64,000 bases of DNA from contig CALXJF010000005.1 of the NCBI GenBank assembly GCA_944388575.1, forward strand, positions 1,495-65,494, given 5' to 3'. Position numbers and translations under genes: made by a program. The DNA is from an uncultured Clostridia bacterium. GTDB lineage: Bacteria; Bacillota; Clostridia; TANB77; CAG-465. The notes beneath the pieces were generated by a model. The model saw only the letters and a program-made list of their open reading frames with translations, had not been told where the DNA came from and searched no databases. Shown piece by piece: positions 26,023 through 31,659 of this stretch. The number at the start of each line of letters is the position of its first letter. Position 1 is the stretch's first letter.

Positions 26023-26661
26023 TTATAATAACTCATTTAAATTATGAGAAGTAAGTTTTAATTTTGATATCTCTTCGCCTTCAAATACGTATGGAACACA
26101 ATTTTTTATTTTTAATCTAAAAACATTTTCTCTAGGTTTAAAACTAAGTATTCCTAACATCATACATCTAATAGCTGCTAAATGAGAAATAATACCAATA
26201 GTATCTTTATTACTATATTTTAAACTATTCAAAAATTTCATACATCGATTTAATACTTCTGTATAGTTTTCTCCATTAGGTGCTTTTTGGGTAAAACTAG
26301 TTCTAAACTCCATATAATTTTCATCTTCAAAGTACTTTTTATACTTATCAATTGATAGTAATTCCTCTTTTGTTTTACCTTCAAAATCACCTAAGCTTCT
26401 TTCTCTTACATCAGGGACAATAATATAGTTGAAATTTGGCTTTACATATTTAGCAGTATCTATGGCTCTTTTTAAATCAGAAACATATACTTTATTTATC
26501 TTTTTTATTATATCCTGATTGGATAATTGTTTAGCCATTTTTATAGCTTCGGGCGTTAAATCTGTTAACTCATTATTTAAACATCCAGTATAAAGATTAA
26601 CTCCTTCTTCTATCATTCTATTTGCTTTTGTTTCTCCATGCCTTATTAACACTAATTTCAT
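26023..26661 (-). CDS. histidine phosphatase family protein
   Basis: LIRHGETKAN catalytic motif. Confidence 0.8.
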   Translation of the reverse strand: MKLVLIRHGETKANRMIEEGVNLYTGCLNNELTDLTPEAIKMAKQLSNQDIIKKINKVYVSDLKRAIDTAKYVKPNFNYIIVPDVRERSLGDFEGKTKEELLSIDKYKKYFEDENYMEFRTSFTQKAPNGENYTEVLNRCMKFLNSLKYSNKDTIGIISHLAAIRCMMLGILSFKPRENVFRLKIKNCVPYVFEGEEISKLKLTSHNLNELL

Positions 26662-26699
26662 TTAATCATCCCTTACTTTTTTTAGATTATATACTTATA

Positions 26700-28343
26700 T
26701 TATAACATAATTTCTATAGATTTTAATTCATTTATTTTCTCTCTAAGTATATCTGCAGGTTTTAAATCATTCCTTATCATATTTTCTAAATCAGCTTTAT
26801 CTATAACTATAATATAACTTTGATAAATCAACTGTTTATTAATCTCTTTAATAGCATCTTTTGTTACTCCATTTTTAGAAAATAAGATATATGTATTAAC
26901 TCCTTTTGTCTGCATCAAATGTATCATACTTCTTATTTCCTTAGTAGAAACTTTATCTTTTAAATTTTTACATTCAACCAAAATAACAGCACCAAGTTGC
27001 CATAAGAACACATCTTTAGATATATTAAAACAACATATATCTATTTCTTGATTTTCAAATTTTACTCTTCTTCCACTAACAACTAGACCTTCTATAGACT
27101 CAATAAAATGATTAGCTATTTCTTCCAGATTAATACCTTTTTCGTTGTTATTACCATAATCTAAATCTTTCAATAATAAAGTAAAATCTTCTTTATTAAA
27201 ACTACTACTTATTTTTCTACTAAGCACTTCTCTTTCATAATGTCTGGCTATTAATCGATATATTTGAGGTAAATATATATATCTAGACCTCATTTGATAT
27301 AATATGTTTTTGGATAACCCATAATCTTCTTTTCCTGATAAAAATTCTTTAACCTTATATATTAATGTAATAAATATTTTAATATACATATCTTTCGATA
27401 TTATATTTTCAGCATAAATAGTATTACATATATTTTCTTCTAAAAATGAGAAAAACTCTTTTAAAAGCTTGTCCATGCTCTCAAAATCATATTCAATATT
27501 TAATGTTGCAAGTGCATATAAAAATACATACATCCATTCCTCAAATAAACTACTTGGGAAAAATACTTTTTCATAGGCATAACCCGACTGTATTAATATA
27601 TCATATATTTCAAAAGACGTATACATTCCTATATCTTCTTTATTTACTTTTTTTAATCCATTTATATTTTCTAAATTTATAGGTAATTTCATTCCACCTT
27701 CTAGGAGAGCACACCAGCCTTCTCCATTTACATTTGGTAAAAAAGTTATTATTCTTCTATCTATTAAGTTTTGTAATAAAAATGATTTTAACATTATTTG
27801 TTTTCCTTGCATAAAAGGTGCCTCTTTTTCAAAAAAAACATTAAATACTTTATCTATTTTTTCATTAAAAAATTTTTCATATTGAGGTTTCTCGATAAAA
27901 GAATAAACTATACAAGCTAAATCTTCTTTAAAATTTTTATAAATATTATAAATTGGATATAATATTGTTTTTTCTTTGATACAATGTTTTATGTATAAAT
28001 TTATAAATCTTTCTATTTTATTTTCATAGCCTAAATTATTAATTTCATCTATTACTTCATTTATATTAATATAATCTTTAGCTAAAATTTTATCAAATAA
28101 ATTAGATTTTATTTTCATTGAAATTGTTTTTTTTAATTGTTCTATATTTTCTATTTTATCTATAATACAATAAAATTCTATATCATTAATATCTTTATTT
28201 TCATATAAAAAATCTATTTTAGTAAAAAAACTTTCAAAAGGATTTATATAATTATCTACTCTATTAACTATTTGTATATCATCTTTATCATCTAATGTAG
28301 CTAAAAAATATATTAATAACTCTTTATTTTCCATATAAACCAC
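26700..28343 (-). CDS. large hypothetical protein with a C-terminal Mrr-like (PD-(D/E)xK) restriction endonuclease domain
   Basis: C-terminal ...EIDICCFN...ILVECKNLKDKVSTKEIRSMIHLMQTKGVNTYILFSKNGVTKDA matches the Mrr_cat D...E-x-K core; N-terminal ~420 aa unrecognised. Confidence 0.6.
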   Translation of the reverse strand: MVYMENKELLIYFLATLDDKDDIQIVNRVDNYINPFESFFTKIDFLYENKDINDIEFYCIIDKIENIEQLKKTISMKIKSNLFDKILAKDYININEVIDEINNLGYENKIERFINLYIKHCIKEKTILYPIYNIYKNFKEDLACIVYSFIEKPQYEKFFNEKIDKVFNVFFEKEAPFMQGKQIMLKSFLLQNLIDRRIITFLPNVNGEGWCALLEGGMKLPINLENINGLKKVNKEDIGMYTSFEIYDILIQSGYAYEKVFFPSSLFEEWMYVFLYALATLNIEYDFESMDKLLKEFFSFLEENICNTIYAENIISKDMYIKIFITLIYKVKEFLSGKEDYGLSKNILYQMRSRYIYLPQIYRLIARHYEREVLSRKISSSFNKEDFTLLLKDLDYGNNNEKGINLEEIANHFIESIEGLVVSGRRVKFENQEIDICCFNISKDVFLWQLGAVILVECKNLKDKVSTKEIRSMIHLMQTKGVNTYILFSKNGVTKDAIKEINKQLIYQSYIIVIDKADLENMIRNDLKPADILREKINELKSIEIML

Positions 28344-28362
28344 TTTCCTTATTTAATACTAT

Positions 28363-28749
28363 TTACAAATCATAGTTCCAAAGACCTAGTTTACCATTAA
28401 TATATATTTTATCTAATTCTTCAAGTTCTTCTAATTTAAAAGCATAACGATTACTATCTTCCAATTTTTCCATACTTTTATACACCTTTGAATCTTTTTT
28501 TAATAGCTCTTTAGCAAATTTATTATCTACTTCTATACAATCAGTGATTTTAGCCTTTGCAATAATACACCCTAAAGGATATTCTAAATTTAAGTATTTA
28601 AATCTTTTAATTGCCTCTTTATCTATATTTTTACCAGAATGAATTAATATATATCCTCTATAATTTGTTCTCCAAGTTCTAAATTCATACTCTTTATATC
28701 CCTTTGCTATTAAACTTGCAAAGGGTTGTTTGATTGTTATAACTTTCAT
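28363..28749 (-). CDS. ASCH-domain (PUA-like) protein
   Basis: MKVITIKQPFASLIAKGYKEYEFRTWRTNYRGYILIH matches the ASCH N-terminal beta-barrel signature. Confidence 0.65.
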   Translation of the reverse strand: MKVITIKQPFASLIAKGYKEYEFRTWRTNYRGYILIHSGKNIDKEAIKRFKYLNLEYPLGCIIAKAKITDCIEVDNKFAKELLKKDSKVYKSMEKLEDSNRYAFKLEELEELDKIYINGKLGLWNYDL

Positions 28750-30546: not shown

Positions 30547-30558
30547 AAAAACTTTCCT

Positions 30559-31197
30559 TTATATGACTTTTTCATCACATTTTTCATTTTCAATTTCTTC
30601 AACTATGTACTCTAAAGTCTTATTTAAAACTTCCATTCTATTTTTTGACGTATCAATATATTTTATATTATACTTTTTACATTCTTCTTCTAATGTATCA
30701 TTCATATCTGCCCATTTTTGGGCATGTTTTTCTAATTCATCATCAGAAATTTCATACGTCCAATCTTTTGGTGTATCATTTTTTCTACAAAGCTCTATAA
30801 TATCCTGTTTAGTTAGACTTCCATGACCTAATGCAATAACTAAAGTATCTTTATAATCTATAATCTCATGAATTATACGTGGATCTAATTGTCCACTTTC
30901 TAAAATATAACCATATTTATTTTCATAATCATATATACAATTATTAAAAATTTCAAGTATTATTTTTTGAAATTCTTCACTATGTTCAAACTCCTTTTGA
31001 GCTTCTATATTTTCTGTATAAAACTTTTCTTTATCTTTTCCTATAATAATTCCCCATTTTATACTATCACTATGTATTAAATTTAAAGTTTTTATTCTAT
31101 CTTTTAACATATTACTTAATGTTGTTTTTCCAGCTCTTCCAATACCACATATAATTACATTCCTCATAAAAATCCCCCTTTTTAGTATATATAACAT
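30559..31197 (-). CDS. P-loop NTPase/kinase-like protein
   Basis: Walker A GIGRAGKTT; start possibly at the internal Met (31167). Confidence 0.6.
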   Translation of the reverse strand: MLYILKRGIFMRNVIICGIGRAGKTTLSNMLKDRIKTLNLIHSDSIKWGIIIGKDKEKFYTENIEAQKEFEHSEEFQKIILEIFNNCIYDYENKYGYILESGQLDPRIIHEIIDYKDTLVIALGHGSLTKQDIIELCRKNDTPKDWTYEISDDELEKHAQKWADMNDTLEEECKKYNIKYIDTSKNRMEVLNKTLEYIVEEIENEKCDEKVI

Positions 31198-31200
31198 TAA

Positions 31201-31659
31201 TTATAAATTTATATAATATAACTTTTCTCCATTTGATAAATCTTGCATATATTTAGCTCCAAACTTTTCATAATAATTAACTAAATCAGTTTTCAAATAT
31301 ACTTTTTTAAATCCTCTTATTTTTGCTTCACTTAATATTGCATTATTAAGTATTTTAGAATATCCTTTATTTCTAAACTCTTTTTTTACAAACATAGTAG
31401 CATACCAAGGAGATAAATCTTTCCTTTCCTCACCATCACTTGGAAATATAGATATAAAGCCTACTAAATCTTTATCATCAAGAAGTATTAATTTACAATA
31501 CTTTATATTATTAAAATTGCTTTTTATTTTTAAAATCTTGTTTTCTACTTTTTTATAAAATTCCTCTTTAGATGAATATTTTCCCCATTCTTTTTCTGTT
31601 AATATAGCAACCTCTTGTAAATATTCTTGCTTTTCTTTTAAATCATATATATTTAACAT
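31201..31659 (-). CDS. GNAT-family N-acetyltransferase
   Basis: 152 aa; acetyl-CoA binding motif region (FVKKEFRNKGYSKILN). Confidence 0.75.
   Translation of the reverse strand: MLNIYDLKEKQEYLQEVAILTEKEWGKYSSKEEFYKKVENKILKIKSNFNNIKYCKLILLDDKDLVGFISIFPSDGEERKDLSPWYATMFVKKEFRNKGYSKILNNAILSEAKIRGFKKVYLKTDLVNYYEKFGAKYMQDLSNGEKLYYINL

Follow-up and report, generated by a model that had tools for sequence, protein, structure and literature searches.

The gene run and its large nuclease

We analyzed a 64,000-nucleotide (nt) stretch of chromosome from an uncultured Clostridia bacterium (GenBank assembly GCA_944388575.1, contig CALXJF010000005.1), which is hereafter called the window, and within it a run of seven genes, one of which encodes a 544-amino-acid (aa) protein with a C-terminal nuclease domain of the Mrr type. 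An earlier interpretation made from the letters of the DNA only, here called the sequence-only reading, had paired this nuclease with the adjoining ASCH gene in a restriction or abortive-infection module, and had considered a small-molecule modification and export pathway for the other genes. The open reading frame (ORF) listing of the window confirmed that seven consecutive ORFs lie on the minus strand at 26023-31659, and Pfam bore out the histidine phosphatase, Mrr_cat, ASCH and GNAT domain calls. The features of the run are the following.

26023..26661, minus strand: histidine phosphatase (branch 1), 212 aa (Pfam His_Phos_1, 1.8e-27)
26700..27149, minus strand: C-terminal Mrr_cat PD-(D/E)xK nuclease domain of the 544-aa protein, aa 396-544 plus stop (PF04471)
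27150..28334, minus strand: unannotated, conserved N-terminal ~395 aa of the 544-aa protein (alignment, AlphaFold2 models)
28363..28749, minus strand: stand-alone ASCH protein, 128 aa, GKER octapeptide type (Pfam ASCH, 1.4e-7)
28770..29273, minus strand: P-loop NTPase, 167 aa (phrog_4182, 6.9e-26)
29401..30546, minus strand: polytopic membrane protein, 381 aa, from a large unnamed conserved family of Bacilli/Firmicutes
30559..31167, minus strand: P-loop NTPase, 202 aa, kinase-like (Walker A motif GIGRAGKTT)
31201..31659, minus strand: GNAT acetyltransferase, 152 aa (Pfam Acetyltransf_1, 3.4e-10)

The large protein had been described as 547 aa long, with an Mrr-type core behind 420 aa of unrecognizable sequence. 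The core stood, both by Pfam and by the motifs EIDICC and ILVECK, which were confirmed in the translation. The lengths were revised: the start is most likely the ATG at 28334 behind the ribosome-binding site AAGGAAAG, giving the 544-aa form that is also called in public assemblies, and the unrecognized N-terminal part is ~395 aa. The C-terminus is predicted to be a member of the Mrr_cat/PD-(D/E)xK group with its catalytic core intact. The Mrr_cat model (PF04471) matches at 3.4e-7 (30.8 bits against a cutoff of 21) over residues 450-523 only, and the same hit is precomputed for most homologues. The catalytic triad, the loss of which had been named as grounds for giving up the proposed module, is present as E404, D432 and E454-C-K456, and the ExK together with the E and the D is invariant in all 15 aligned homologues. 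A check of the translation places the catalytic codons as follows.

27123..27125, minus strand: E404
27039..27041, minus strand: D432
26973..26975, minus strand: E454
26967..26969, minus strand: K456

In the AlphaFold2 model the nuclease domain runs from a helix (396-412) through three strands (417-426, 429-437 and 450-456) to a second helix (464-477) and a last strand (481-486), an order that fits the alpha-beta-beta-beta-alpha-beta core of restriction-endonuclease-like folds. When the full model was searched with Foldseek, only the nuclease domain was matched (Rpb5 N-domain, MspJI, AspBHI, EcoT38I and AF1548), with probabilities of 0.99-1.0 but with every E-value above 1e-3. A whole-model match to VC1899 (1xmx), which we take to be a protein of the CARF-plus-nuclease type, was too weak and was not used (E 0.1, probability 0.72, template modelling (TM) score ~0.2). 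No cyclic-oligonucleotide system was seen near the nuclease gene.

The N-terminal ~395 aa are without a match in Pfam, NCBIfam, PADLOC, PHROGs, PDB and BFVD. The region can be divided into three parts, namely an alpha/beta subdomain (1-175) that is the most variable part and acidic (median pI 4.8), a basic motif segment (166-215) that is conserved as strongly as the nuclease core, and a small beta region followed by a helical bundle (~195-395). The N-terminal alignment has 24 invariant columns, and the invariant residues in the 15-sequence alignment include E171, P173, G177, Q179, F185, R193, E212-G-G214, Y252, W267, Y273, F294 and F297. The mean pairwise identity among the homologues is 35% in the N-terminal region and 46% in the nuclease. 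AlphaFold2 gave a mean predicted local distance difference test (pLDDT) value of 81 for the full protein and of 72 for residues 1-392 modelled alone. Foldseek matches of the N-terminal model to LasR/QscR ligand-binding domains, longin/roadblock folds and Top7 were dismissed as noise (E above 0.03, low probability, TM below 0.2); at most, they hint at an alpha/beta sandwich in the predicted structure. Pfam searches with ten N-terminal sequences and PDB profile searches returned only scattered one-member hits with E-values of 0.006 or higher. None of Mrr_N winged helix, SRA, EVE, YTH, ASCH and DUF3427 was found in the N-terminal 392 aa with Pfam (10 members), PDB profiles or Foldseek against PDB and BFVD. 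The claim of an unrecognized N-terminus thus held up against structure prediction as well as profile searches, and the region is large, conserved and unrecognized at the sensitivity of these searches.

The nuclease family and its surroundings

A word-indexed search found the nuclease family as 17 clusters among 5.8 billion, one of them annotated as 'restriction endonuclease [Paenibacillus elgii]'. In an exhaustive profile search of 1.84 billion representatives, 86 hits, counting fragments, fell below 1e-30. All full-length ones among them align over the entire profile and so share the two-part architecture. Less significant hits cover only positions ~370-531, which correspond to the nuclease domain, and it is mostly through this domain alone that the family profile reaches its total of 2,321 hits. 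Ten such nuclease-only relatives were scanned, and their N-termini comprise NdpA/NA37, PIN, squalene-hopene-cyclase-like, DUF5939 and tandem Mrr_cat/NA-iREase1 domains, while three of the ten showed nothing besides Mrr_cat. Since the relatives carry so many different N-termini, the nuclease domain is a shuffled cassette that occurs with many unrelated partners. The closest nuclease-only relatives have unusual fusions: proteins P0125, P0126, P0127 and P0160 combine a NdpA/NA37 nucleoid-associated, squalene-hopene-cyclase-C-like or PIN domain with Mrr_cat.

A pattern-based scan of the genomes of 185,579 species recovered two nuclease loci; the patterns came from seven closer sequences, so that divergent members can be missed, as was the one of Paenibacillus elgii. 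The complete seven-gene arrangement was found only on four conspecific metagenomic contigs (L001-L004; recovered loci are numbered with an L), the proteins of which are 98-100% identical. Beyond this species the nuclease occurs in nine distinct contexts, and tblastn detected the other six cluster proteins in none of them. The nine contexts are listed below.

Context 1: M29 peptidase / nuclease / RusA / amidase, in an uncultured Clostridia lineage (L005, L006; L018 has the same layout)
Context 2: elongation factor P (EF-P) / nuclease / helix-turn-helix (HTH)/DinB, in Paenibacillus elgii
Context 3: nuclease / VanW and glycosyltransferase
Context 4: DUF1848 / nuclease
Context 5: Met-gamma-lyase / nuclease / RsmH-like
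Context 6: nuclease / 337-aa unknown protein and YqeY
Context 7: nuclease at a contig end
Context 8: GNAT / nuclease / RsmB/F
Context 9: collagen-like / nuclease / zinc-dependent alcohol dehydrogenase (Zn-ADH), in Anaerolentibacter hominis

The nuclease family is therefore rare, patchy and differently placed in each lineage, and it has no conserved partner gene. It is clearly under selection. The seven-gene cluster is a species-specific juxtaposition, probably an evolutionary accident, and not a conserved system. Nor is it a conserved housekeeping operon, the outcome that had been named as speaking against a defense role, as the arrangement is confined to the conspecific contigs; the cluster is simply not conserved.

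No DNA methyltransferase gene adjoins the nuclease in the window or in the nine other contexts, and the methyltransferases nearby belong to rRNA/tRNA families only. Genes of these families (RsmH-like, RsmB/F-like and TrmA/RlmCD-like) lie 0-8 kb from the nuclease in four lineages (L012:6908-7948, L017:2939-3880, L019:15231-17452 and window 36166-37530), a proximity that could be coincidental synteny among Clostridia. Flanking ORFs of no recognized family gave no PADLOC hits. Apart from an IS3-family element ~6 kb from the nuclease in Paenibacillus elgii, the flanks of the nuclease showed neither repeats nor genes of mobile elements. At one locus (L009:59-1627) the tblastn match to the nuclease begins ~220 nt 5' of the called 448-aa gene (P0007), and in this homologue the start may have been called wrongly or the N-terminus may contain a frameshift.

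Neighboring genes and the rest of the window

The ASCH protein matches PF04266 with 32.5 bits against a cutoff of 21.2 and phrog_3193 at 6.7e-31. Its octapeptide G17-Y-K19-E-Y-E22-F-R24 aligns with GIKRVEGR of the TRIP4-ASCH domain, and the nearest solved structures by PDB sequence search are the ASCH domain of TRIP4/ASC-1 (1e-5) and TTHA0113 (8e-3), both of low similarity. The family counts at least 1,875 clusters, hundreds of which are 60-70% identical across Firmicutes, and it is thus ~100 times the size of the nuclease family. The neighbors of ASCH homologues (GNAT, SDR, YjbR, FMN reductase, NUDIX, AP-endonuclease-2, Ham1-like, acyltransferase-3 and CutA1) are small enzymes of the house-cleaning type, and no nuclease was found beside the homologues in the recovered loci L020-L035. 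In two independent metagenome assemblies the ASCH gene carries a nonsense allele (L001:3389-3775 and L002:3229-3615) in which a T-to-A change turns Leu83 from TTA into TAA. This stop is the sole difference among five ASCH copies over 406 aligned nt, and the adjoining nuclease protein is 100% identical. The ASCH gene is independent of the nuclease because the two families differ so much in size, live in separate neighborhoods, and coexist as a nonsense allele beside an identical nuclease. A recent preprint reports that TRIP4-ASCH, TTHA0113 and 17 other ASCH proteins remove N4-acetylcytidine (ac4C) from tRNA, with the K and E of the motif being essential (bioRxiv 10.64898/2026.02.27.708502), and YqfB is the founding ac4C amidohydrolase (PMC6972931). 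Judged by its motif, the window protein is most likely an N4-acetylcytidine amidohydrolase or an RNA-binding enzyme and not a reader of DNA modifications, and a role as RNA or nucleoside deacetylase is a better-supported guess than one as modification reader for the nuclease.

In each of two further Firmicutes lineages, the ASCH homologue is closely preceded on its 5' side by a YjbR-family gene. The two genes overlap by 4 nt in L032 (4657-5396) and L034 (168-907), an SDR gene stands between them in L027-L031 (3884-5387), and NUDIX, Ham1-like, GNAT and FMN-reductase genes lie near these pairs. YjbR and ASCH may thus form a recurrent association.

The 381-aa membrane protein gave no hits in Pfam, NCBIfam or PADLOC, and it belongs to a family of at least 2,255 homologous clusters, many of them 50-65% identical. 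Homologues exceed it by 10-20 aa in length and align to only 95% of it; a C-terminal frameshift was considered and rejected, as the tail resembles the family consensus by eye and all conspecific copies have 381 aa. A metagenome scan seeded on this family yielded 80 loci, mostly from the human gut and with flanks of up to 8 kb where the contig allowed, in which the membrane proteins are 47-57% identical to that of the window. When these loci were searched by tblastn with the seven proteins, the nuclease was found in none, the ASCH protein, the 167-aa P-loop protein and the GNAT in one each, the 202-aa P-loop protein in two, and the phosphatase in 11 at just 25-29% identity. At the phosphatase locus that was examined (L087), the gene of a different membrane protein sits between the phosphatase and the membrane gene, and in L068 the order of the 202-aa P-loop gene followed by the membrane gene is kept. 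In L056 (5770-12613) a homologue of the membrane protein and a 48%-identical homologue of the 167-aa P-loop protein stand next to each other, separated only by an 83-aa ORF; the surroundings, with large membrane proteins and an 820-aa ATPase-like protein, look conjugation- or secretion-like by eye.

The two P-loop proteins had been called kinases. The P-loop itself was borne out by the Walker A motifs; the label 'kinase' is no more than plausible on the Pfam matches, all of which are to AAA/kinase-like families and under the gathering cutoffs, and NCBIfam gave the same picture. For the larger P-loop ORF the most likely start is the ATG at 31167, preceded by GGGGG (the start had been set at 31197), so that the protein has 202 and not 212 aa, again the form that is called in public contigs; its best match is AAA_18 at 2.6e-4, below the cutoff, and PHROG and PDB matches are lacking. 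The 167-aa protein is from a family that large phages carry as well; it matched 134 phage records by tblastn, including AR9, PBS1, SP-10, c-st and T5-like phages, and some of these matches are annotated as 'kinase' or 'AAA ATPase'. PBS1/AR9 and SP-10 are phages with non-canonical thymine replacements, and the presence of homologues in them hints that the 167-aa protein may be a (deoxy)nucleotide kinase. Kinship between the two P-loop proteins was considered and dropped, as they have only the Walker A motif in common. The GNAT has weak AAC(6')-like NCBIfam matches far under the cutoff, and the NCBIfam equivalogs CobC, PspA and GpmA all score far under their cutoffs for the phosphatase. The six neighbors of the nuclease gene are, in short, ordinary genes.

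With corrected starts, the intergenic gaps of the run are, from low to high coordinate, 38, 28, 20, 127, 12 and 33 nt. No significant RNA structure was found in the 127-nt gap, and Rfam returned no riboswitch or leader RNA at E of 1 or less across 25500-32400. The run is flanked by the following elements.

31713..31741, minus strand: top sigma-70-like promoter match 5' of the GNAT gene, TTTACA-17-TATAAT, 11/12 (consensus match only)
31770..31860, minus strand: terminator-like hairpin with U-tract, separating the cluster from the upstream ATP-binding cassette (ABC)-exporter genes
25925..25979, minus strand: terminator-like AT-rich hairpin with U-tract, between the phosphatase gene and the BceR-like regulator gene

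RNA folding gave -34 kcal/mol for the hairpin at 31770-31860 (z = -8.4 compared to shuffles), which is followed by CUUUCUUUUUUAUUU, and -20.5 kcal/mol for that at 25925-25979 (z = -6.6); the latter was missed by the consensus terminator scan because the scan demands at least three G-C pairs. Sigma-70-like promoter matches are not enriched over shuffles in the AT-rich cluster region. As one promoter-like and two terminator-like elements bracket the seven genes, these are probably one transcription unit in this species. This spacing is not special, however, since strand bias and short gaps are usual in the window: 56 of its 62 genes are on the minus strand, the gaps between same-strand neighbors have a median of 22 nt with 57% of them at 40 nt or less, and five runs of at least four genes, one of them of eight, satisfy the same spacing criterion. 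In such a compact, strand-biased genome, adjacency and co-directionality carry very little meaning.

The window is ordinary chromosome, with genes for Der/EngA, PlsY, UvrA, Tex, asparagine synthase and a TrmA/RlmCD-like methyltransferase, a GC content of ~25% and a negative GC skew over nearly its whole length. The GC content of the nuclease gene (0.23-0.25) equals that of its neighbors, which makes composition uninformative as a test for recent horizontal transfer. Beside the BceB-like permease gene, the gene of a BceA-like ABC ATPase (23211-23979, minus strand) is split into overlapping ORFs of 68 and 199 aa in different frames. This looks like a frameshift, and because gene calling on the conspecific contig L001 gives this 68-aa fragment too, it is probably no assembly-specific error. 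A pair of genes at 11493-13312 (minus strand) consists of a second histidine phosphatase gene (201 aa, His_Phos_1 8e-42) and, directly 5' of it, the gene of a 399-aa protein for which Pfam and PADLOC returned nothing. Paralogy of this pair with the cluster was considered and rejected: the 399-aa protein shows no relation to either the 381-aa membrane protein or the transporter of L087, and 23% identity between the two phosphatases is the only kinship between the pair and the cluster genes. Just 3' of the ABC-exporter genes, a perfect 26-nt inverted repeat, GTGTCTATATATCTATTCTAACACCA, has its arms at 32012-32037 and 32095-32120, with 57 nt between them; the pair folds at -41.7 kcal/mol (z = -9.1) and has no Rfam match. 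A further copy, the third, is found at a distance of 21 kb (11184-11209) with a single mismatch, where none is expected by chance, and the element may be a dispersed repeat or resemble a miniature inverted-repeat transposable element (MITE) or repetitive extragenic palindromic (REP) element.

Interpretation and relation to known systems

The explanation that we favor, with some reservation, is that the cluster strings together, in this one species, genes of unrelated function and includes a self-contained sensor-nuclease, the likeliest function of which is single-gene defense. The 544-aa protein would then act alone as sensor plus effector: its N-terminal module would sense a cue, be it foreign or modified nucleic acid or another ligand related to infection or stress, and would recruit or release the nuclease as is done in type IV enzymes and Shedu, the likeliest role being defense against phages or other mobile DNA. 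Nothing in the findings on this protein contradicts what a specialist would expect. Several observations nevertheless weigh against this explanation. The model of the N-terminal region reaches only moderate confidence, at the pLDDT of 72 given above, and the most conserved motif is its least confident part. No modified-base-reader fold was recognized in the region, and the acidity of its most variable subdomain (median pI 4.8) is unlike that of typical DNA readers. No significant match was found in PADLOC-DB v2, where the window protein reached only PDC-S02 at E = 0.024; over the 15 family members PDC-S02 appears in two, with a best E of 0.0032. Co-occurrence of ASCH and nuclease homologues in defense islands, which had been suggested as a check, was found neither in the window nor at the homologue loci, and these loci offer no defense-island context at all, their neighbors being housekeeping genes (EF-P, M24/M29 peptidases, rRNA methyltransferases, VanW and YqeY). 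The family was also absent from a scan of 2.9 million viral contigs (IMG/VR) that rested on two peptide patterns. Finally, co-transcription in this species could reflect some shared regulation, contrary to the notion of unrelated genes. Within the preferred explanation, a more specific and more tentative possibility is that the family is an undescribed single-gene immune nuclease of Firmicutes with a new sensor fold, and as such an Mrr_cat counterpart of Shedu. The fold would consist of an alpha/beta subdomain that is acidic and evolves fast, a basic motif with the invariant pattern E-x-P-x3-GKQ...R...EGG, and a helical bundle, and it would detect an infection cue and gate or recruit the shuffled Mrr-type cassette.

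A serious rival, though one that we hold to be rather unlikely, is that the 544-aa protein is a lineage-restricted housekeeping nuclease of DNA repair, recombination or RNA processing, with an N-terminal module that targets a cellular substrate. All of its neighborhoods are housekeeping ones without defense genes, it directly adjoins a RusA resolvase gene in one lineage (L005 and L006, with the same layout in L018), four contexts (L012, L017, L019 and the window) have an rRNA/tRNA methyltransferase gene no more than a few kb away, its base composition is that of its neighbors, and it was not found on viral contigs. Its rarity and patchiness (17 clusters in 5.8 billion, two loci in 185,579 species) are, however, unlike a core repair function, its neighborhood changes with every lineage, and the shuffling of the nearest nuclease domains onto unrelated N-termini is typical of conflict systems. 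The patchy and seemingly horizontally scattered distribution would also suit a selfish or toxic element without benefit to the host, either a toxin held in check by its own N-terminus or by a small neighbor, or a homing-type nuclease, and small uncalled or unknown ORFs do lie beside some homologues (e.g. 37 and 56 aa in L012). We consider this improbable, since no neighbor gene is conserved in any context, flanking repeats and mobile genes were not seen apart from the IS3-family element in Paenibacillus elgii, and the full-length conservation of the 395-aa N-terminal region points to a selected function.

The two proposals of the sequence-only reading fare worse. That the GNAT, the two P-loop kinases, the membrane protein and the phosphatase form a pathway for modification and export of an antibiotic or nucleoside would agree with co-directional genes at short gaps bracketed by one promoter-like and two terminator-like elements, with the weak AAC(6')-likeness of the GNAT, and with the gene pairs kept in single relatives (membrane gene then 167-aa P-loop gene in L056, 202-aa P-loop gene then membrane gene in L068). 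We judge it very improbable, as adjacency was not conserved across the 80 membrane-protein loci (GNAT in one, the 202-aa P-loop protein in two, the 167-aa P-loop protein in one), the 11 phosphatases are only 25-29% identical and in L087 parted from the membrane gene by another gene, all resistance and equivalog models score far under their cutoffs, the P-loop proteins share only Walker A, and the gene spacing is typical for this genome. Pairing the Mrr-type nuclease with the ASCH protein as its reader of a modified base was a reasonable idea: the genes adjoin at 28 nt and are probably co-transcribed, proteins of the PUA superfamily including some with ASCH domains are predicted or known readers of modified bases, and stand-alone ASCH proteins accompany some type I restriction-modification (R-M) and GNAT-EVE systems (PMC7641849). 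Yet it fails on the evidence gathered here. An ASCH gene is present in none of the nine distinct nuclease contexts, the close ASCH homologues examined do not adjoin the nuclease, the families differ ~100-fold in size, the nonsense allele stands beside an identical nuclease in two independent samples, and the window protein is of the GKER type, for which ac4C deacetylase activity is reported (bioRxiv 10.64898/2026.02.27.708502). Synteny largely refutes this pair, to which we assign almost no probability, and the seven-gene system as such is not real.

What survives is a small family in which a standard Mrr-type nuclease is coupled to a large, conserved module without a counterpart in any of the sequence or structure libraries. 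If it is a defense nuclease, the module would be a new sensor domain for single-gene immune nucleases and possibly a source of new reagent specificity; if it is a housekeeping enzyme, it would stand for a lineage-restricted nucleic-acid-processing activity. The gain is incremental in either role, as uncharacterized Mrr_cat fusions are very common, with 2,321 hits to the family profile.

Among known systems, the type IV enzymes E. coli Mrr, MspJI and AspBHI have the same order as the 544-aa protein, an N-terminal non-catalytic module followed by a C-terminal PD-(D/E)xK domain with an E...D...ExK pattern; MspJI and AspBHI are moreover among the Foldseek matches of its nuclease domain (E above 1e-3), and, as for these enzymes, no DNA methyltransferase gene adjoins the nuclease at its loci. 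Its N-terminus differs, however, in having no Mrr_N winged-helix, SRA, EVE, YTH or ASCH match in Pfam or Foldseek, in being far larger at ~395 aa than the type IV readers, and in the acidity of its first subdomain. With no reader domain found, the protein cannot be assigned to the type IV enzymes from its sequence. The PUA-superfamily fusions EVE-HNH and SRA-PD-(D/E)xK (PMC6765204, PMC7897488), the concept behind the pairing in the sequence-only reading, have reader and nuclease in one protein; compared to them, the window ASCH is a separate, abundant gene, and its linkage to the nuclease is not conserved. The window ASCH, with its GxKxxExR octapeptide, is comparable to GKER-type proteins (T. 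thermophilus TTHA0113/2DP9, human TRIP4-ASCH and EOLA1) and to YqfB, for which removal of ac4C from tRNA or nucleosides is reported; the comparison concerns only this neighbor gene of the nuclease, and the similarity to TRIP4-ASCH and TTHA0113 is low (E = 1e-5 to 8e-3). Shedu (SduA) combines a conserved C-terminal PD-(D/E)xK nuclease with varied N-terminal sensors that regulate it, many of them of novel folds, in one gene (bioRxiv 10.1101/2023.08.10.552793), and the nuclease subfamily of the 544-aa protein is likewise fused to many unrelated N-termini. The nuclease of Shedu is, in contrast, DUF4263, whereas the 544-aa protein carries Mrr_cat, with no DUF4263 in Pfam and no Shedu hit in PADLOC, which makes it an analogue of Shedu and not a member. 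The description that best suits the predicted architecture of the 544-aa protein is a fusion of sensor and nuclease in which the N-terminal module is undescribed.

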